The notes under the pieces: model-generated
What the model was told of the DNA's origin: nothing
Database searches by the model: none
The model's input: the letters and a program-made list of their open reading frames with translations, nothing else
NCBI RefSeq assembly: GCF_056712565.1
Contig: NZ_CM160072.1
DNA length: 64,000 nucleotides
Reading direction: 5' to 3' (one strand)
Part shown: in pieces, positions 4,242 to 26,600 of the stretch
Position numbering within the stretch: the first letter of the stretch is position 1
Layout: every line of letters starts with the position of its first letter
Program-made: the position numbers and the translations under genes

Positions 4242-6518
4242 ATGCTCAATCAAGAACTGGAACTCAGTTTAAATATGGCTTTCGCCAGAGCGCGCGAGCA
4301 CCGTCATGAGTTTATGACCGTCGAGCACTTGTTACTGGCGCTGCTCAGTAACCCATCTGCCCGGGAGGCGCTGGAAGCGTGTTCTGTGGATTTGGTTGCG
4401 CTCCGTCAGGAACTGGAAGCCTTTATTGAACAAACCACACCCGTTCTGCCTGCCAGTGAAGAGGAGCGCGACACACAGCCGACGCTGAGTTTTCAGCGTG
4501 TACTGCAACGTGCGGTCTTCCATGTCCAGTCCTCCGGTCGCAATGAGGTTACCGGTGCAAACGTTCTGGTCGCTATCTTTAGCGAACAGGAGTCGCAGGC
4601 GGCATATCTGTTGCGCAAACATGAAGTCAGCCGTCTTGATGTGGTGAACTTTATCTCTCATGGCACGCGTAAAGACGAGCCGACACAGTCTTCTGATCCT
4701 GGCAGCCAGCCAAACAGCGAAGAACAAGCTGGTGGGGAGGAACGTATGGAGAATTTCACGACGAACCTGAATCAGCTTGCGCGAGTGGGCGGAATCGACC
4801 CACTGATTGGTCGTGAGAAGGAGCTGGAGCGTGCTATTCAGGTTCTCTGCCGTCGCCGTAAAAACAACCCGCTGCTGGTGGGGGAGTCTGGTGTCGGTAA
4901 AACCGCGATTGCGGAGGGGCTTGCATGGCGAATTGTTCAGGGCGATGTGCCGGAAGTGATGGCTGACTGTACGATTTACTCTCTCGATATCGGTTCTCTG
5001 TTAGCGGGCACAAAATATCGCGGCGACTTTGAAAAACGTTTTAAAGCGTTGCTCAAGCAGCTGGAGCAAGACACTAATAGCATCCTGTTTATTGATGAGA
5101 TCCACACCATTATCGGTGCGGGTGCAGCGTCTGGTGGCCAGGTCGATGCGGCTAACCTGATCAAACCGTTGCTCTCCAGCGGTAAAATCCGCGTAATTGG
5201 TTCGACAACCTATCAGGAGTTCAGCAACATTTTTGAGAAAGACCGTGCTCTGGCGCGTCGCTTCCAGAAAATTGATATTACTGAACCGTCAATCGAAGAA
5301 ACTGTTCAAATCATCAATGGCCTGAAACCGAAGTATGAAGCGCACCACGACGTGCGTTATACCGCAAAAGCGGTGCGTGCGGCGGTAGAGCTGGCGGTGA
5401 AATACATTAACGATCGTCATCTGCCGGATAAAGCGATTGATGTTATCGACGAAGCGGGCGCTCGCGCACGTCTGATGCCGGTAAGCAAACGCAAGAAAAC
5501 CGTTAATGTGGCGGATATTGAATCCGTGGTGGCCCGTATTGCACGCATTCCAGAGAAGAGTGTTTCTCAGAGTGACCGCGATACCCTGAAAAACCTCGGC
5601 GATCGCCTGAAAATGCTGGTCTTCGGTCAGGATAAAGCCATTGAGGCGCTGACTGAAGCCATTAAGATGGCGCGTGCAGGTTTAGGTCACGAACATAAAC
5701 CGGTCGGTTCGTTCCTGTTTGCCGGCCCTACTGGGGTCGGGAAAACAGAGGTGACGGTACAGCTTTCGAAAGCGTTGGGCATTGAGCTTCTGCGCTTTGA
5801 TATGTCCGAGTATATGGAACGCCATACCGTCAGCCGTCTGATTGGTGCGCCTCCGGGATACGTTGGTTTTGATCAGGGCGGTTTGCTGACTGATGCGGTC
5901 ATCAAGCATCCACATGCGGTGCTGCTGCTGGACGAAATCGAGAAAGCGCACCCGGACGTGTTCAACATCCTCTTGCAGGTGATGGACAACGGTACACTGA
6001 CCGATAACAACGGACGCAAAGCGGACTTCCGTAACGTGGTGCTGGTGATGACCACTAACGCGGGGGTACGTGAAACCGAGCGCAAATCCATTGGTCTTAT
6101 CCACCAGGATAACAGCACCGATGCGATGGAAGAGATCAAGAAGATCTTTACACCGGAATTCCGTAACCGTCTCGACAACATTATCTGGTTCGATCATCTG
6201 TCAACCGACGTGATCCATCAGGTGGTGGATAAATTCATCGTCGAGTTGCAGGTTCAGTTGGATCAGAAAGGTGTTTCTCTGGAAGTGAGCCAGGAAGCGC
6301 GTAACTGGCTGGCCGAGAAAGGTTACGACCGGGCAATGGGCGCACGTCCGATGGCGCGTGTCATCCAGGACAACCTGAAAAAACCGCTCGCCAACGAACT
6401 GCTGTTTGGTTCGCTGGTGGACGGCGGTCAGGTCACCGTCGCGCTGGATAAAGAGAAAAATGAGCTGACTTACGGATTCCAGAGTGCACAAAAGCACAAG
6501 GCGGAAGCAGCGCATTAA
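4242..6518 (+). CDS. clpA: ATP-dependent Clp protease ATP-binding subunit ClpA
   Basis: track ORF 4227..6518; ATG at 4242 gives [24 protein letters not shown]; two AAA+ modules ([16 protein letters not shown]). Confidence 0.93.
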
Positions 6519-6544
6519 TCTGATTGTCAGGTAGGTTGGTTAAG

Positions 6545-6580
6545 TCCGTGATCTCGTCAGGGGTTACGGACTTTTTATTT
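6545..6580 (+). terminator. probable clpA rho-independent terminator
   Basis: GTCCGT...ACGGAC stem followed by TTTTTATTT, 27 bp after the clpA stop. Confidence 0.5.
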
Positions 6581-6730
6581 ATGGGGGGAGGAGGTTCAGA
6601 CCCTTTTTTTAATGATGATGCTAAGTTATTGATAATTAGTGCTGCGGGTAGGTAAGGATAAAAAAGGGTGGCAGCAGGAGATTGAGATGGTTTTGCTTTA
6701 TTAACAACGGGCTAAACGTGTAGTATTTGA

Positions 6731-7058
6731 GTTCACTGCCGTACAGGCAGCTTAGAAATGACGCCATATGCAGATCATTGAGGCGAAACCGTTCACTGCC
6801 GTACAGGCAGCTTAGAAAACGTTCGCACCGGTCAGGGTACTGCGCAGCGTGTTCACTGCCGTACAGGCAGCTTAGAAAGAAACCAGAGCGCCCGCATAAA
6901 ACAGGCACAAGTTCACTGCCGTACAGGCAGCTTAGAAATGATGGCGCAGCAGTCCTCCCTCCTGCCGCCAGTTCACTGCCGTACAGGCAGCTTAGAAACT
7001 GAACGTTGAAGAGTGCGACCGTCTCTCCTTGTTCACTGCCGTACAGGCAGTATTCACA
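6731..7058 (+). CRISPR. type I-F CRISPR array upstream of cas1: 6 repeats, 5 spacers of 32 bp
   Basis: 28-bp repeat GTTCACTGCCGTACAGGCAGCTTAGAAA at 6731, 6791, 6851, 6911, 6971; terminal degenerate copy at 7031 (GTTCACTGCCGTACAGGCAGTATTCACA); exact 60-bp periodicity. Confidence 0.97.
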
Positions 7059-7230
7059 CTACGATAGTGTTAGACGTTTGGTCGTGCAATGACACTCTCA
7101 ACTTCAAACCATTAGCGTTAGCACGCAATAACAATCGTAATAATTGCGATGGAAATCAATTTTCAGCACATAAATCAATGCTGTACTAAGCCCAATACCT
7201 TCAAATATAAAATAATCACAGGATGTGTTT

Positions 7231-8214
7231 ATGTCTTCGAATTACCTTACGCCTTCCGATCTCAAAACCATTCTCCACTCCAAACGCGCCAATATTTATT
7301 ATCTGGAAAAATGCCGGGTACAGGTGAATGGTGGGCGGGTGGAGTATGTTACCAGCGAAGGTAAAGAGTCGTACTACTGGAATATCCCCATTGCGAATAC
7401 CACGGCGTTGATGCTGGGAATGGGAACTTCCGTTACCCAGGCGGCGATGCGTGAATTTGCTCATGCCGGGGTGATGGTAGGCTTTTGTGGTACGGATGGC
7501 ACGCCGCTGTATTCAGCAAATGAAGTGGATGTTGATGTCTCCTGGCTCAGCCCACAAAGTGAATATCGCCCTACAGAGTATCTCCAGCAGTGGGTTTCTT
7601 TCTGGTTTGTTGAAGACAAACGACTTGCTGCCGCGAAACGTTTTCAGTTAATCCGCCTGACACATATCGATAAGCACTGGTCCAGCTCGAAAATGCTGCG
7701 TGAACACGCATTTCAACCTGATGTTAATGCGCTGCATACCCTCCTGAATCGTACTTGTGAAGAAATAGACGCGGCAGAAAACCATACGCAGCTTATGCTC
7801 GTTGAGGCCAAATTGACTAAAGCGTTATACAAAATGGTCAGTCAAACCGTGGGGTATGGCGATTTCACTCGCGCAAAACGGGGCGGTGGTATCGATATGG
7901 CCAACCGCTTCCTCGATCAAGGGAATTATCTGGCTTATGGACTGGCAGCAGTGGCGGCGTGGGTAACAGGTATCCCGCACGGTTTAGCTGTAATGCATGG
8001 TAAGACACGTCGCGGCGGGCTTGTTTTTGACCTTGCCGATCTGATTAAAGATGCTCTTGTTATGCCGCAAGCATTTATTGCCGCAATGGCGGGAGAAGAT
8101 GCTCAGGAGTTTCGTCAACGCTGTGTTAATATCTTTCAACAAGCGGATGCGCTGGATGTCATGATCACCTCTCTGCAGGAAACGGCCCAGGCACTGGCTA
8201 AGGCTGACCAATGA
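7231..8214 (+). CDS. cas1: type I-F Cas1 integrase (track ORF begins at GTG 7225)
   Basis: 329-aa ORF; strong similarity to Pseudomonas/Yersinia I-F Cas1 as I recall it (KTILHSKRAN, LAYGLAA, HGKTRRGGLVFD). Confidence 0.9.
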   Translation: MSSNYLTPSDLKTILHSKRANIYYLEKCRVQVNGGRVEYVTSEGKESYYWNIPIANTTALMLGMGTSVTQAAMREFAHAGVMVGFCGTDGTPLYSANEVDVDVSWLSPQSEYRPTEYLQQWVSFWFVEDKRLAAAKRFQLIRLTHIDKHWSSSKMLREHAFQPDVNALHTLLNRTCEEIDAAENHTQLMLVEAKLTKALYKMVSQTVGYGDFTRAKRGGGIDMANRFLDQGNYLAYGLAAVAAWVTGIPHGLAVMHGKTRRGGLVFDLADLIKDALVMPQAFIAAMAGEDAQEFRQRCVNIFQQADALDVMITSLQETAQALAKADQ

Positions 8215-11200
8215 ATGTCCTAATTATCTCACGCTGTACGAAAAATGCTCGCGTGGAAAGCTGCCGTATTATTGATCAGTTTGCCGAACGCACTGGTGAC
8301 GCAGCATGGCAAACGGTGATTACTCTGGAAGGCGTTAATACACTCCGCCGTTTACTGCGCAAAACCGCCAGGCGAAATACCGCAGTGGCTTGTCACTGGC
8401 TGAAGAAGAATGGGCAAACGGAGCTGATGTGGATTGTCGGCAATATTCGTCGCTTTAATGCTCAAGGCCGCGTTCCCACAAATCGAACAACGCAAATCAG
8501 CCTGGTGAACAAAGAAGAAAATCGCTGGCAGTGCGCGGAAAGTATTGCACTGCTGGCGGCTATCGCTGGGCTATTTCATGATTTTGGTAAATCAGGACGC
8601 AGCTTTCAGCAAAGCCTGACTCAAAAGAATACCCGCAGTTATCAACCTTACCGACATGAATGGATTTCACTGCGGCTCTTTCAGACGTTTGTCGGTGAGC
8701 GGCCCGACGATGTGTGGCTGGCGAAGCTTGGCGAACTCACGGCAGATGATGAATCTGCGATTCTTGAGCGCCTGCAAAAAGACACTCCTCAATTTTCAAA
8801 TAGCCCGTTCAGTTCGCTGCAACCATTAGCCAAAACGGTAGGCTGGCTGATCCTTTCCCATCATCGAATGCCGGAGAATCTTTCTCCACAGTCGGAACAA
8901 TCATGTAAAGGGTGTGAAAGTTGGCTGGAGAAGCAACTTAATGCTGACTGGAATGCCGTTAACCACCGCAGAGATGACTGGTCACAACAGGATTTTGCGC
9001 ACGTCTGGCAGTTTCCATCAGGAACGCCGCTTCAAAGCGCGAGCTGGCGGGAAAAAGCGCGTCAGATAGCCCGCCGGGCAAGCAACGCGCTCGGTTTAAA
9101 GACATATGGGCAGATGGAACAGTTGTTCCCCTTACATATGGCGCGTTTTTGTCTGATGCTTGCCGATCATTACTATTCCTCAAGCGATGCGCAGCAAAAA
9201 TGGCAGGACCCGGATTATATCGTCTGGGCAAATAGCGATCGCCAAAGCGGCACGCTCAAACAACGGGTAGACGAACACCTTGTGGGCGTCGCGCATCATG
9301 CGTATCTGCTTGGGCGGCAACTGATGCACACACGGGCATCGCTTCCGGCAATTGCCCGACATAAAGGTTTTAGCCAGCGGGCTACAGATGTGAATTATCG
9401 CTGGCAAGATAAAGCCTGGGATGTGGCGCGAGCGTTACGTGAACGAAGTCGTGAAGAGGGATTTTTCGGCGTCAATATGGCCTCGACGGGGTGTGGTAAA
9501 ACCTTTGCGAACGCCCGCATTATGTATGCACTTGCCGACGAGCGAGAAGGGTGCCGCTTTACCGTTGCGCTGGGATTGCGCACGCTGACTTTACAAACCG
9601 GCGATGCTCTGCGCAGTCGGCTTGGGCTGGGTGAGGATGAGCTGGCGGTACTGATTGGTTCGGCGGCAGTTAATCAACTGTGGCAACAGGAAAAAATAGA
9701 CAATGATTGCGGAAGTGCTTCGCAAGAGTCGCCGGCAGAGGAGCAACAGTTCGTTAAGTACGAAGGCAGCCTGCATACCGGGGCGCTGGAAAAATGGTTG
9801 AAGGATGACAGCAAACTTAAGGAGTTAGTAAGCGCGCCGATTCTGGTCTCGACGATTGATCATCTTATTTCCGCGACCGAGGGCGTGCGAGGCGGGAAAC
9901 AGCTTCCGGCGATGTTGCGCCTGTTAACCAGCGATTTAGTGCTCGACGAACCTGATGACTTTGATATTGCTGATCTTCATGCGGTATGTCGATTGATGAA
10001 CTGGGCCGGGATGCTGGGAACGCGGGTATTACTTTCTTCCGCGACGTTACCGCCAGGTTTGATTCAGGCGCTGTTCGCGGCTTATCTTGCTGGGCGAAAA
10101 ATGTGGCAGGCGTCTTGTGGTATCAACGGCAGGCCTGTCAATATATGCTGCGCCTGGTTTGATGAAAAAGATGCTGATGCCACGCAAATTTACGACGGAC
10201 CTGGGTTTCGTGATGCTCATGCCAAATTTGTTGCACGACGAGCGGTAATGCTGGCTGAAAAAGAACGACTGCATTTCGGGCGTGTAGCTTCGGTTTCATC
10301 AGCATCAGGCGCGATACAAGATGTTACCGAAAGTGTGGCCCAGACGGTGCATACGCAAATGCTGAAGTTGCATCAGGCGCATCGCCAGCGACACGAAAGC
10401 GGTAAAACCGTTTCGCTGGGCCTGGTGCGCTTCGCGAATATCAATCCACTGGTTGCGGTGACCAAAGCCCTGATTGCCATTCCTTCACCAGAAGATGTCT
10501 GCATTCATTACTGTGTTTACCACTCCCGACATCCGCTGGCGGTGCGTTCAGATATTGAGAAGCGACTGGATCGCGCTTTTACTCGTCATAACGAACTCGA
10601 TTTCTGGAACAACGAAGATATCGCAGATGCCTTACATAACCGTCCGGAATCGCACCATCTGTTTGTGGTGTTGGGGACATCGGTTATAGAAGTGGGGCGT
10701 GACTGGGATGCGGACTGGGGAATTATCGAACCAAGCTCCATGCGTTCGATAATTCAATTTGCCGGACGTATTCAGCGCCACCGTAGAAATGTGCCGACCA
10801 GTGAGAATCTGGTTATTTTGCGTAGCAATATCAAATCATTGCAGAAAAAAGCCCCCGCATTTTGTAAGCCTGGTTTCGAAACAAAAGAACACTTGCTGAA
10901 TAGCCACGATATTTGCGAACTGATTCCGATCGCGGACTACCGGACGATTAACGCCTTGCCGCGGATCCTGTCTGCCAATAATGCCAACAAACTGGCGGAG
11001 CTAGAACATAGTCGTTTATCCGCCGAATTGATGAGCAGTAAAAGCAAACATGTGGTGGCGGCGCAATGGTGGCGTGCACCGCTAAGCTGGAACGGCTGGA
11101 TGCAGCGCCAGACGCCATTTCGTTATTCCCCTTTGCCGGAGGCGGTGTTTTTTCTGCATATGGATGATGAAGAAAGCGAAGCGCGTTTCTATTCCCGCAC

Positions 11201-11444
11201 GGGCGACAACGAGCGTAAAGCGCAAGGGAATTTCAGGCGAGAAGAGGTGAGATGCGCCAGCGGCGTCGCTTGCTGGGGCGTGATGGATTACCAACACGTT
11301 TTGTTGAATTTAGCTGATAAGCAAAGTTGTGAGATAGCAAACGTTGGGGAAAAGTTTGCGGAGGTGAGAGTACCCGTCAGTGAAGAAGATGCGGTCGATG
11401 ACTGGCGTTATCACCCCTGGTTAGGTGTGTTTCGCAACATGTGA
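8211..11444 (+). CDS. cas3: type I-F Cas2-Cas3 fusion (Cas2 domain, HD nuclease, SF2 helicase)
   Basis: 1077-aa ORF; N-terminal Cas2-like segment, HD motif (HDFGK), Walker A STGCGKT, DExD-like LDEPDDF; ATGA overlap with cas1. Confidence 0.9.
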   Translation: MNVLIISRCTKNARVESCRIIDQFAERTGDAAWQTVITLEGVNTLRRLLRKTARRNTAVACHWLKKNGQTELMWIVGNIRRFNAQGRVPTNRTTQISLVNKEENRWQCAESIALLAAIAGLFHDFGKSGRSFQQSLTQKNTRSYQPYRHEWISLRLFQTFVGERPDDVWLAKLGELTADDESAILERLQKDTPQFSNSPFSSLQPLAKTVGWLILSHHRMPENLSPQSEQSCKGCESWLEKQLNADWNAVNHRRDDWSQQDFAHVWQFPSGTPLQSASWREKARQIARRASNALGLKTYGQMEQLFPLHMARFCLMLADHYYSSSDAQQKWQDPDYIVWANSDRQSGTLKQRVDEHLVGVAHHAYLLGRQLMHTRASLPAIARHKGFSQRATDVNYRWQDKAWDVARALRERSREEGFFGVNMASTGCGKTFANARIMYALADEREGCRFTVALGLRTLTLQTGDALRSRLGLGEDELAVLIGSAAVNQLWQQEKIDNDCGSASQESPAEEQQFVKYEGSLHTGALEKWLKDDSKLKELVSAPILVSTIDHLISATEGVRGGKQLPAMLRLLTSDLVLDEPDDFDIADLHAVCRLMNWAGMLGTRVLLSSATLPPGLIQALFAAYLAGRKMWQASCGINGRPVNICCAWFDEKDADATQIYDGPGFRDAHAKFVARRAVMLAEKERLHFGRVASVSSASGAIQDVTESVAQTVHTQMLKLHQAHRQRHESGKTVSLGLVRFANINPLVAVTKALIAIPSPEDVCIHYCVYHSRHPLAVRSDIEKRLDRAFTRHNELDFWNNEDIADALHNRPESHHLFVVLGTSVIEVGRDWDADWGIIEPSSMRSIIQFAGRIQRHRRNVPTSENLVILRSNIKSLQKKAPAFCKPGFETKEHLLNSHDICELIPIADYRTINALPRILSANNANKLAELEHSRLSAELMSSKSKHVVAAQWWRAPLSWNGWMQRQTPFRYSPLPEAVFFLHMDDEESEARFYSRTGDNERKAQGNFRREEVRCASGVACWGVMDYQHVLLNLADKQSCEIANVGEKFAEVRVPVSEEDAVDDWRYHPWLGVFRNM

Positions 11445-11447
11445 TGG

Positions 11448-11528
11448 GGCGCGAGCTGCCTGTACGGCAGTTTACAAGTCCGTATCCGGAGATACCTCTA
11501 TTTCTAAGCTGCTCAAGGCAGTTTGGGT
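11448..11528 (-). ncRNA. candidate Cas-regulating crRNA-like RNA (CreA/CreR-like): degenerate repeat, 25-nt spacer-like segment, degenerate repeat
   Basis: minus strand reads acccaaactgccttgagcagCTTAGAAA / tagaggtatctccggatacggactt / gtaaaCTGCCGTACAGGCAGctcgcgcc; the 8-nt 5' handle and the Cas6f hairpin are conserved, the rest has decayed; possible sigma70 promoter on minus strand (-35 TTGCCA at 11552..11557, -10 TAACAT at 11529..11534). Confidence 0.55.
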
Positions 11529-23617: not shown

Positions 23618-26600
23618 TTGAGCCAGGAATACACTGAAGACAAAGAAGTCACATTGACAAAGTTAAGTAGCGGCCGCCGTCTTCTGGAGGCGTTGCTGAT
23701 CCTTATTGTCCTGTTTGCCGTCTGGTTGATGGCTGCCTTACTAAGCTTTAACCCTTCGGACCCCAGCTGGTCGCAAACGGCCTGGCATGAACCTATCCAT
23801 AATTTAGGTGGGATGCCCGGTGCGTGGTTGGCAGATACGCTGTTCTTTATTTTTGGCGTGATGGCTTACACCATTCCCGTCATTATTGTCGGCGGTTGTT
23901 GGTTTGCCTGGCGTCATCAGTCCAGCGACGAATACATTGATTATTTTGCCGTTTCGCTACGCATCATTGGCGTTTTGGCGCTCATCCTTACCTCCTGTGG
24001 TCTGGCGGCAATCAACGCTGACGATATCTGGTATTTTGCCTCCGGTGGCGTCATTGGCAGCTTACTAAGCACTACGCTACAACCACTGCTACACAGTAGC
24101 GGGGGAACTATTGCGCTGCTCTGCGTTTGGGCAGCGGGCCTGACGCTGTTCACCGGTTGGTCATGGGTGACCATTGCTGAAAAACTCGGCGGCTGGATTT
24201 TAAATATTCTTACCTTCGCCAGTAATCGTACCCGTCGCGATGATACCTGGGTCGATGAAGATGAGTATGAAGACGACGAAGAGTATGAAGATGAAAATCA
24301 CGGCAAACAGCATGAATCACGCCGTGCCCGTATTCTTCGCGGCGCGCTAGCGCGTCGTAAACGGTTGGCGGAAAAATTCATTAATCCGATGGGGCGGCAA
24401 ACAGATGCTGCGCTGTTCTCCGGTAAGCGGATGGATGATGAAGAAGAGATTACCTACACTGCACGCGGTGTGGCTGCCGACCCTGACGACGTCCTGTTTT
24501 CGGGCAATCGTGCAACGCAGCCAGAATATGACGAATACGATCCATTATTAAACGGTGCGCCAATTACCGAACCTGTTGCTGTAGCAGCTGCTGCTACCAC
24601 GGCGACACAAAGCTGGGCTGCACCGGTTGAACCTGTGACTCAGACGCCGCCAGTTGCCTCTGTTGATGTTCCACCTACGCAACCTACAGTAGCCTGGCAG
24701 CCTGTACCGGGGCCGCAAACGGGAGAACCGGTTATTGCACCTGCACCGGAAGGTTACCCACAGCAGTCACAATATGCGCAGCCTGCAGTGCAATATAATG
24801 AGCCGCTGCAACAACCTGTACAGCCACAGCAGCCGTATTATGCGCCTGCGGCTGAACAGCCTGTGCAACAACCTTACTACGCTCCTGCGCCGGAACAGTC
24901 TGCGCAACAGCCGTATTACGCCCCTGCGCCAGAACAACCGGTGGCAGGTAACGCCTGGCAAGCCGAAGAGCAGCAATCCACTTTTGCTCCACAGTCTACA
25001 TACCAGACGGAGCAAACTTATCAGCAGCCAGCCGCTCAGGAGCCGTTGTACCAACAGCCGCAACCCGTTGAACAGCAGCCTGTTGTGGAGCCTGAACCCG
25101 TTGTAGAAGAGACAAAACCCACGCGTCCGCCGCTTTACTATTTTGAAGAAGTGGAAGAGAAGCGAGCCCGTGAACGTGAACAACTTGCGGCCTGGTATCA
25201 ACCGATTCCAGAACCGGTTAAAGAACCGGAACCGATCAAATCTTCGCTGAAAGCACCTTCTGTTGCAGCAGTACCTCCAGTAGAAGCCGCTGCCGCTGTT
25301 TCTCCGCTGGCATCTGGTGTGAAAAAAGCGACACTGGCGACGGGGGCTGCCGCAACCGTTGCCGCGCCAGTCTTCAGTCTGGCAAATGGCGGTGGACCGC
25401 GTCCGCAGGTCAAAGAGGGGATTGGCCCGCAGTTGCCACGACCGAAACGCATCCGCGTGCCAACTCGTCGTGAACTGGCGTCTTACGGTATTAAGCTGCC
25501 CTCACAGCGTGCGGCAGAAGAAAAAGCCCGTGAAGCCCAGCGTAATCAGTACGATTCTGGCGATCAGTACAACGATGATGAAATCGATGCGATGCAGCAG
25601 GATGAACTGGCACGTCAGTTCGCCCAGACGCAGCAGCAACGCTATGGCGAACAGTATCAACATGATGTGCCCGTGAACACAGAAGATGCAGATGCTGCGG
25701 CAGAGGCAGAACTGGCTCGTCAGTTTGCTCAAACTCAACAACAACGTTATTCCGGCGAACAACCGGCTGGGGCGAATCCGTTCTCGCTGGATGATTTTGA
25801 ATTTTCGCCAATGAAAGCGTTGCTGGATGATGGTCCACACGAACCGCTGTTTACGCCAATTGTTGAACCTGTACAGCAGCCGCAACAACCGGTAGCACCG
25901 CAGCAGCAATATCAGCAGCCGCAACAACCGGTAGCACCGCAGCAGCAATATCAGCAGCCGCAACAACCGGTTGCACCGCAGCCGCAGTATCAGCAGCCGC
26001 AATATCAGCAGCCACAACAGCCGGTTGCACAGCAGCCGCAATATCAGCAGCCACAACAACCGGTTGCACAGCAGCCGCAGTATCAGCAGCCACAACAGCC
26101 GGTTGTATCACAGCCGCAGGATACCCTGCTTCATCCGCTGTTGATGCGTAATGGCGACAGCCGTCCGTTGCATAAACCGACGACGCCACTGCCTTCTCTG
26201 GATTTGCTGACACCGCCGCCGAGCGAAGTGGAGCCGGTAGATACCTTTGCGCTTGAACAAATGGCGCGCCTGGTAGAAGCGCGTCTGGCTGATTTCCGTA
26301 TTAAAGCCGATGTTGTCAATTACTCTCCGGGGCCAGTTATCACTCGCTTTGAATTGAACCTGGCACCGGGCGTAAAAGCAGCGCGCATTTCTAACTTGTC
26401 ACGTGACCTTGCCCGTTCACTTTCGACGGTGGCGGTGCGTGTCGTTGAAGTTATTCCTGGCAAACCCTATGTAGGTCTGGAGTTACCGAATAAAAAACGA
26501 CAAACCGTTTATCTGCGCGAAGTTTTGGATAACGCCAAATTCCGCGATAATCCGTCGCCATTAACCGTGGTGCTGGGTAAAGATATCGCCGGTGAGCCGG

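Follow-up and report, generated by a model that had tools for sequence, protein, structure and literature searches.

The CRISPR4.1 array of an ST95-type Escherichia coli is very probably an inert type I-F lineage marker retaining anti-plasmid spacers

The presence of a short repeat array beside a set of type I-F cas genes in Escherichia coli raises the question of whether the array still provides immunity and, if it does not, what its spacers record. Within the window, by which we refer to the whole 64,000-nt stretch of DNA analysed, positions 6731-7058 very probably represent the CRISPR4.1 array of the E. coli type I-F CRISPR-Cas locus between clpA and infA, present here as an inert lineage marker, or fossil, rather than as active immunity. 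The order of elements is clpA, a terminator, the upstream array, cas1f, cas2-3f, csy1, csy2, csy3, cas6f, tRNA-Ser(GGA), a second array and infA, corresponding to the 'CRISPR-III' locus of E. coli, the arrays of which have been named CRISPR4.1 and CRISPR4.2 (Almendros et al. 2014, PMC3903273). In genomes identical to the window, PGAP also annotates a CRISPR at the position of the upstream array. Six copies of GTTCACTGCCGTACAGGCAG, at 6731, 6791, 6851, 6911, 6971 and 7031, recur with an exact 60-nt period and define the following elements:

6731-7030, plus strand: five 28-nt type I-F repeats of identical sequence, with a 32-nt spacer after each (repeat search, Rfam)
6759-6790, plus strand: spacer 1 (s1), 32 nt
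6819-6850, plus strand: spacer 2 (s2), 32 nt
6879-6910, plus strand: spacer 3 (s3), 32 nt
6939-6970, plus strand: spacer 4 (s4), 32 nt
6999-7030, plus strand: spacer 5 (s5), 32 nt, the oldest spacer and trailer anchor
7031-7058, plus strand: degenerate terminal repeat with the hairpin retained (Rfam, 29.6 bits)

Repeats 1-5 are identical 28-mers (GTTCACTGCCGTACAGGCAGCTTAGAAA) displaying the layout typical of type I-F, in which a 5-bp hairpin (CUGCC-N5-GGCAG) is followed by CTTAGAAA, and they match Rfam RF01317 (CRISPR-DR4) on the plus strand at 50.1 bits. The sixth repeat retains the first 20 nt, including the hairpin, and has diverged over its last 8 nt (TATTCACA instead of CTTAGAAA), such that it scores below the gathering score of 35. 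A degenerate terminal repeat at the cas1-proximal end (7031) was part of the original prediction and is borne out by this divergence, and the five spacers listed there agree letter for letter with the sequence. All five are distinct, each is 32 nt in length, and the 60-nt spacing occurs five times; this repeat-spacer structure cannot have arisen by chance. Together with the DR4-like repeat and its period, six adjacent cas genes in canonical order and an A+T-rich leader with an IHF consensus were found, as is characteristic of a type I-F array.

In a working system, the 132-nt leader (6599-6730) would drive transcription of the plus strand, and new spacers would be integrated at repeat 1 with the assistance of IHF. 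Cas6f would cut each repeat after its hairpin, yielding crRNAs predicted to consist of an 8-nt 5' handle (CUUAGAAA), a 32-nt spacer and a 20-nt 3' hairpin, with which the Csy complex would find DNA carrying 5'-CC beside the protospacer, for subsequent degradation by Cas2-3. A profile search of the window identified six NCBIfam I-F equivalogs in canonical order, listed here together with the second array:

7231-8214, plus strand: cas1f, intact (TIGR03637, 549.9 bits; PGAP)
8211-11444, plus strand: cas2-3f (cas3f), intact (TIGR02562, 1208.6 bits; PGAP)
11774-13081, plus strand: csy1 (cas8f), intact (profile match; PGAP)
13078-14001, plus strand: csy2 (cas5f) pseudogene, with an in-frame amber at 13291-13293 (CAG to TAG, Q72*)
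14012-15013, plus strand: csy3 (cas7f), intact (profile match; PGAP)
15024-15578, plus strand: cas6f (csy4) pseudogene, with an amber at 15390-15392 (CAG to TAG, Q123* of 184 aa)
16119-16507, plus strand: downstream array (CRISPR4.2), seven repeats and six spacers, with the same repeat as upstream and a degenerate terminal repeat at the infA end

Intact genes for the Csy-complex subunits and Cas6f are not what is found here, given the stops in csy2 (Q72*) and cas6f (Q123*). The profile match to csy2 is split into two segments (1-65 and 95-295), PGAP flags an 'internal stop' in both genes in genomes that match the window at 100% identity, and both stops represent CAG to TAG changes relative to the intact genes of NRG 857C. 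Cas5f/Csy2 is required for assembly of the Csy complex, RNA cleavage needs the C-terminal third of Cas6f/Csy4, and spacer acquisition in type I-F also depends on the interference machinery. Because csy2 and cas6f are broken, the array is expected to be neither processed, used nor extended; to judge by the stop codons, crRNA processing and interference have probably been lost in the window strain.

Two additional repeat-like elements, 25 nt apart, were observed on the minus strand in the intergenic region between cas2-3f and csy1. The first (11448-11475) reads GTAAACTGCCGTACAGGCAGCTCGCGCC, matches the repeat at 20/28 positions and ends in a degenerate tail resembling that of the terminal repeat, and the second (11501-11528) is a gapped copy retaining GCAGCTTAGAAA. 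This 329-nt intergenic region is 100% identical in NRG 857C, and the pair may be what is left of an inverted mini-array or, alternatively, may form a hairpin of the Cas6f type within the cas2-3 3' UTR. Further along the locus, the tRNA-Ser gene (anticodon GGA; 15689-15776, minus strand) lies in opposite orientation and separates the cas operon from the downstream array.

The csy2 stop allele, identified through an exact 61-mer, is widespread, occurring in 124/237 genomes that constitute about the same set as the carriers of s1-s3. The cas6f stop allele is rare (11/240 genomes), and S88 and MS8345 possess the csy2 stop together with an intact cas6f; the decay of the cas genes was therefore stepwise. 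Across 10.3 kb only two positions separate the window from S88: one creates the cas6f stop, and the other is a C-to-T substitution in repeat 1 of the downstream array. N47, a member of another spacer group, features an internal stop in cas3f instead.

A search of 5426 complete genomes located spacers s1-s3 in 126 of them, among others UTI89, UM146 and IHE3034, without exception within an annotated CRISPR feature. Furthermore, 10.1 kb of the window are 100% identical to at least four complete genomes (Z0117EC0054, APEC E18055, AH21G053 and AH19D088), and the window lies within a few SNPs of S88, APEC O1 and ATCC 11775. These matches indicate that the array is a marker of the ST95-type B2 lineage (S88, APEC O1, UTI89), and a conserved type I-F spacer set ('spacerome') has been reported from a mostly ST95 genome group (145/161; bioRxiv 10.64898/2026.01.12.698643). 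The trailer end is shared more broadly: the combination of a repeat, s5, the terminal repeat and the flank, with s5 in terminal position, was identified in 193 genomes spanning several B2 lineages, out of ~237-240 with I-F cas genes. Spacer orders among related arrays, given from the leader end to the trailer end, are as follows:

Window: s1 s2 s3 s4 s5
MS8345 and one metagenome contig: s1 s2 s3 X1 X2 X3 s4 s5
N58: s1 s2 s3 s3 X1 X2 X3 s4 s5
Second metagenome contig: s1 s2 s4 s5
N1420: a b c s3 X2 X3 s4 s5
23AR0806: n1 s1 (seven others) s2 X2 X3 s4 s5
N47: five unique spacers, then s5
NRG 857C: eight unique spacers, then s5

Because of this trailer-anchored comparison, we read the window array not as freshly grown; the alignment indicates that it is a deletion derivative of the eight-spacer form, from which three internal units (X1-X3) have been lost. 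Variation among the arrays of the window lineage consists of deletion and duplication, and not of gain at the leader end. A more extensive relative was observed in E. coli 23AR0806 (813-1680), the 14-spacer CRISPR4.1 array of which comprises s1, s2, X2, X3, s4 and s5 along with NRG 857C spacer 8 and eight others, one of the eight lying on the leader side of s1. Such a mixture points either to an ancestral array that was fuller or to arrays having recombined.

Could the array nevertheless remain in use, through readthrough or suppression of the amber codons or through Cas5f and Cas6f provided in trans? Although cas1f, cas2-3f, csy1 and csy3 have remained intact, the repeats show perfect conservation, and a glutamine-inserting amber suppressor would restore both wild-type proteins given that each stop is a CAG to TAG change, we consider continued immunity to be very unlikely. 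Two independent nonsense mutations acquired stepwise (in 124, then in 11 genomes) follow the pattern of relaxed selection, no second I-F locus was found within the window, and the changes seen in the arrays of the lineage are deletions and duplications as opposed to leader-end gains. Moreover S88, which carries the csy2 stop alone, stably keeps the plasmid pECOS88, containing a CC-flanked target of its own downstream-array spacer 4 (A2_s4) with a single mismatch at position 25. The same plasmid also contains a site that s5 matches with three mismatches, of which two fall at every-sixth positions. S88 is not the window strain, although it shares the same arrays and the csy2 stop with cas6f intact, and its co-harbouring of pECOS88 suggests, indirectly, an absence of interference. 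The first 50 kb of pZ0117ECO054-1, a plasmid of a strain 100% identical to the window that does not have an F-type backbone, contained no spacer targets.

The reading of the array as an inert marker is accompanied by a defined orientation, for which the relevant flanking features are:

6542-6573, plus strand: clpA intrinsic terminator-like hairpin (14-bp stem) with a T-rich tail, the upstream limit of the leader region (clpA itself ends at 6518)
6599-6730, plus strand: leader of the upstream array (CRISPR4.1), 132 nt, A+T-rich, from homology with the downstream leader
6622-6634, minus strand: perfect IHF consensus (TATCAATAACTTA = WATCAANNNNTTR), 96 nt upstream of repeat 1, a site predicted by motif match
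15988-16118, plus strand: downstream-array leader, a homologue of 6599-6730 that has its IHF consensus on the minus strand at 16011-16023

Five independent lines of sequence evidence favour a plus-strand orientation in which the leader is located beside clpA: the strand of the DR4 matches, leader homology with its IHF site, conservation of the leader, the CC PAM and the comparison of arrays. The original prediction had likewise placed the array on the plus strand, co-directional with the cas genes, and had located the leader at about 6590-6730, which was essentially right, the homology giving 6599-6730. Specifically, the 132 nt at 6599-6730 align with 131 nt at 15988-16118, with shared blocks extending from GACCCTTTTT up to the first repeat. 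In both leaders an IHF consensus is situated on the minus strand ~96 nt before repeat 1, in a 64-kb window in which 8 such matches were observed and 2.7 expected. A possible further IHF-like motif, closer to the repeat, was noted by eye. IHF-dependent folding of the I-F leader has been established in P. aeruginosa (bioRxiv 10.1101/2023.05.26.542337). The leader and exactly one repeat are conserved in 5386/5426 E. coli genomes, with matches ending at window positions 6758-6763, and are present even in cas-less K-12 derivatives, BL21 and O157:H7; compared with NRG 857C the leader differs at 1/212 nt. With respect to the PAM, a GG/CC motif at the leader-proximal end, along with native activity, has been described in LF82 (PMC3506596). 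In the plus orientation CC occupies this position in two of the three exact protospacers, those of s4 and of downstream-array spacer 4. Finally, related arrays agree in their cas1-side spacers and diverge towards clpA, the pattern that acquisition at the leader end would produce.

The converse arrangement, in which the array would be read on the minus strand from a leader on the cas1 side (7059-7230), has hardly any probability. The repeat hairpin is symmetric and folds about equally well on both strands (-8.6 vs -9.1 kcal/mol), and the sole promoter-like match in 6480-7260 is on the minus strand (7231-7204), at chance level. However, the Rfam DR4 matches are all on the plus strand, the degenerate repeat and the spacers common to relatives are at the cas1 end, and it is the clpA-side flank, not the cas1-side flank, that exhibits homology and an IHF site in common with the other leader. 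The motif required by the minus-strand reading is absent from 3/3 exact protospacers, as against 2/3 with CC for the plus strand. A strict consensus scan of the leader detected no sigma-70 promoter on the plus strand; plus-strand transcription of the array may still occur, although with csy2 and cas6f broken functional crRNPs are unlikely to result.

Searching the spacers against phage, plasmid and E. coli genomes, as had been proposed with the original prediction, was productive for s4 and s5, which match plasmids, and returned no target for s1-s3. Together, s4 and s5 match at least 5000 plasmids in PLSDB, for the most part conjugative ones from Escherichia, Klebsiella, Salmonella and Shigella, with the s5 site alone occurring in 1862. 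Their targets fall within the gene order methylase - klcA-like - ssb - psiB - psiA - ardA, on one strand, the same as that of the genes, and are 0.4 to 3.6 kb apart. Judged by these matches, s4 and s5 are anti-plasmid spacers directed against the leading region of F/I/K-type conjugative plasmids. The protospacer of s4 is intergenic, ~310 bp upstream of ssb in IncK/IncI plasmids, and that of s5 corresponds to codons 9-19 of a gene for a KlcA/ArdB-like 'antirestriction protein', situated in the leading regions of F, IncI and IncK plasmids. In plasmid F, for example, s5 matches 56779-56810, within the 5' end of a gene that encodes an 'antirestriction protein' of 141 aa (MQYAKPVTLNVEECDRLSF...) and is located in the leading region between a methylase gene and ssb/psiB. 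The protospacer of s4 was also observed to edge a long G+C-rich, hairpin-prone intergenic stretch upstream of ssb (pSFE059 4404-4700; NZ_CP023534.1 ~64097-64128), which by its position resembles the single-strand promoter (Frpo/ssi) elements of F and ColIb-P9.

A check of these targets for a GG/CC PAM, likewise proposed beforehand, gave a divided outcome, since s4 has the canonical 5'-CC and s5 does not. In 1862/1862 plasmids the s5 protospacer is flanked by CT, not CC, being preceded by the Thr codon ACT, and the synonymous ACT to ACC variant, which would create CC, is absent among these 1862 plasmids. Therefore, either the acquisition of s5 was non-canonical or its original source lies outside the database. 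The flank reads A1G2T3 in the target-strand notation of Almendros 2012, in which study G2 alone (AGC) sustained interference (PMC3506596). Because G2 sufficed there, s5 may once have been functional despite its CT flank. The adjacent position of s4 and s5, with targets at neighbouring sites on the same strand, is compatible with primed acquisition; as an independent test of priming, the neighbours of s5 in the NRG 857C and N47 arrays were looked for in the plasmid leading regions that had been retrieved, giving no matches.

For the remaining spacers, no match to s1-s3 or to the lost X1-X3 was found in 50,697 phage records or 72,556 plasmids (E<=10), nor in IMG/VR using patterns that ignore every sixth base. 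Among 5426 E. coli genomes, queried with s1-s3, matches occurred only inside CRISPR features. In species-representative genomes s1 and s3 retrieved nothing, and s2 retrieved two JGI metagenome matches only, both of them arrays themselves. Self-targeting was considered and rejected: with the arrays masked, none of the 11 spacers in the two arrays matched the window at better than 16/17 nt, in keeping with the earlier failure to match any spacer elsewhere in the window by eye. That the array might act in the manner of orphan CRISPR4, with anti-cas spacers (I-F or I-E) blocking the uptake of active CRISPR-Cas, a possibility that came with the original prediction, is vanishingly improbable, for although its leader and first repeat are the same element as in cas-less strains, the I-F cas genes of the window are unmatched by the spacers of either array (best 16/17 nt), s1-s3 match only CRISPR features in genomes most of which have I-E cas genes, and s4 and s5 have exact plasmid targets instead.

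Returning to the array as an inert marker, we infer an order of events for its decay and that of the cas genes. The two oldest spacers, s5 and then s4, would have been taken from the leading region of an F/I/K-type plasmid, the first part to enter a recipient. From an older eight-spacer array three internal units would subsequently have been lost, and the shortened copy frozen. The csy2 Q72* mutation would have occurred in the ST95-type B2 lineage and cas6f Q123* been added in the sub-clade of the window, leaving an array that is most likely still transcribed, and neither processed nor used. It is also conceivable, though rather unlikely, that s5 has persisted through a role in priming spacer acquisition when conjugative plasmids enter, and that csy2 Q72* in the ST95 ancestor, with cas6f Q123* added later, let this lineage acquire and keep the ColV/IncF virulence plasmids that its spacers match.

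Comparison with known systems places this locus within described biology. The CRISPR4.1 locus of LF82/NRG 857C (Diez-Villasenor 2010; Almendros 2012, 2014) has the same locus order, including serW, the same 28-nt repeat and terminal repeat, and the same last spacer, s5; NRG 857C differs, however, in having nine spacers (eight of them different) and six intact cas genes, compared with five spacers and stops in csy2 and cas6f in the window. The ST95-type I-F locus (S88, APEC O1, UTI89 and ATCC 11775; 'group A spacerome' of the preprint) has identical arrays and csy2 Q72*, from which the window is distinguished by its membership of an 11-genome sub-clade with the additional cas6f Q123* and the C-to-T change in the downstream first repeat, whereas the MS8345 sister sub-lineage has three more spacers than the window. 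Arrays of type I-F in P. aeruginosa PA14 and Pectobacterium atrosepticum share 28-nt DR4 repeats, 32-nt spacers, an IHF-bearing leader and a CC/GG PAM, the last seen here at 2/3 exact protospacers, with repeats that differ at a few positions. In a partial comparison of leader architecture, P. aeruginosa features two IHF sites and two inverted repeats, compared with one perfect IHF consensus per leader in the window. The orphan CRISPR4.1-2 arrays of cas-less E. coli have the same leader, first repeat and chromosomal site without adjacent cas genes, whereas the window possesses a full, decayed set and no anti-cas spacer.

Descriptions of the E. coli I-F locus date from 2010-2014 onwards and include the orientation, the leaders, the PAM and the spacers directed at plasmids; use of the ST95 spacer set as a typing marker has also been proposed. 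The array is thus already known biology, since published work deals with the way such arrays are oriented, with their leaders and PAM, with the bias of E. coli I-F spacers towards plasmids, with clonal arrays dominated by deletion and with the ST95 spacer set; the specific csy2 and cas6f nonsense alleles are visible in public PGAP annotation. Only two aspects may be mildly novel, namely the retention of a non-canonically flanked anti-KlcA spacer as a pan-lineage anchor, and the possible opening of ST95 to spacer-matched plasmids through the loss of csy2. The value of the analysis for annotation lies in assigning the plus strand, a leader at 6599-6730, an anti-plasmid role to s4 and s5, and a non-functional state to the system (csy2 and cas6f pseudogenes). 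With csy2 and cas6f being pseudogenes, the presence of 'I-F CRISPR-Cas' here should therefore not be read as plasmid immunity. The stepwise decay, and the co-residence of targeted plasmids in S88, also fit the epidemiological discussion of I-F systems in relation to the carriage of IncF/I plasmids.

The downstream array presents targets of both plasmid and phage origin. Spacer 4 (16328-16359) has its target, flanked by a CC PAM, in RepFIB initiator genes, the identity being 100% in ~1000 plasmids, and spacer 5 resembles an ead/Ea22 region of lambdoid phages at 90-96% identity. Deriving a PAM from the phage matches of spacer 5 was attempted and rejected, as only matches with 3-4 mismatches are available and their flanks (CT, TG) are uninformative. 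The first repeat of this array contains C21T (16139), which has no counterpart in S88, and its first spacer is 33 nt in length; the downstream array of NRG 857C comprises 21 spacers, of which s1, s2 and s6 are common to the window. Elsewhere in the window, tandem 39-nt repeats (also 78/93-nt), rich in CAG/CCG codons (Gln/Pro), were observed at 25873-26118, probably within a coding region.
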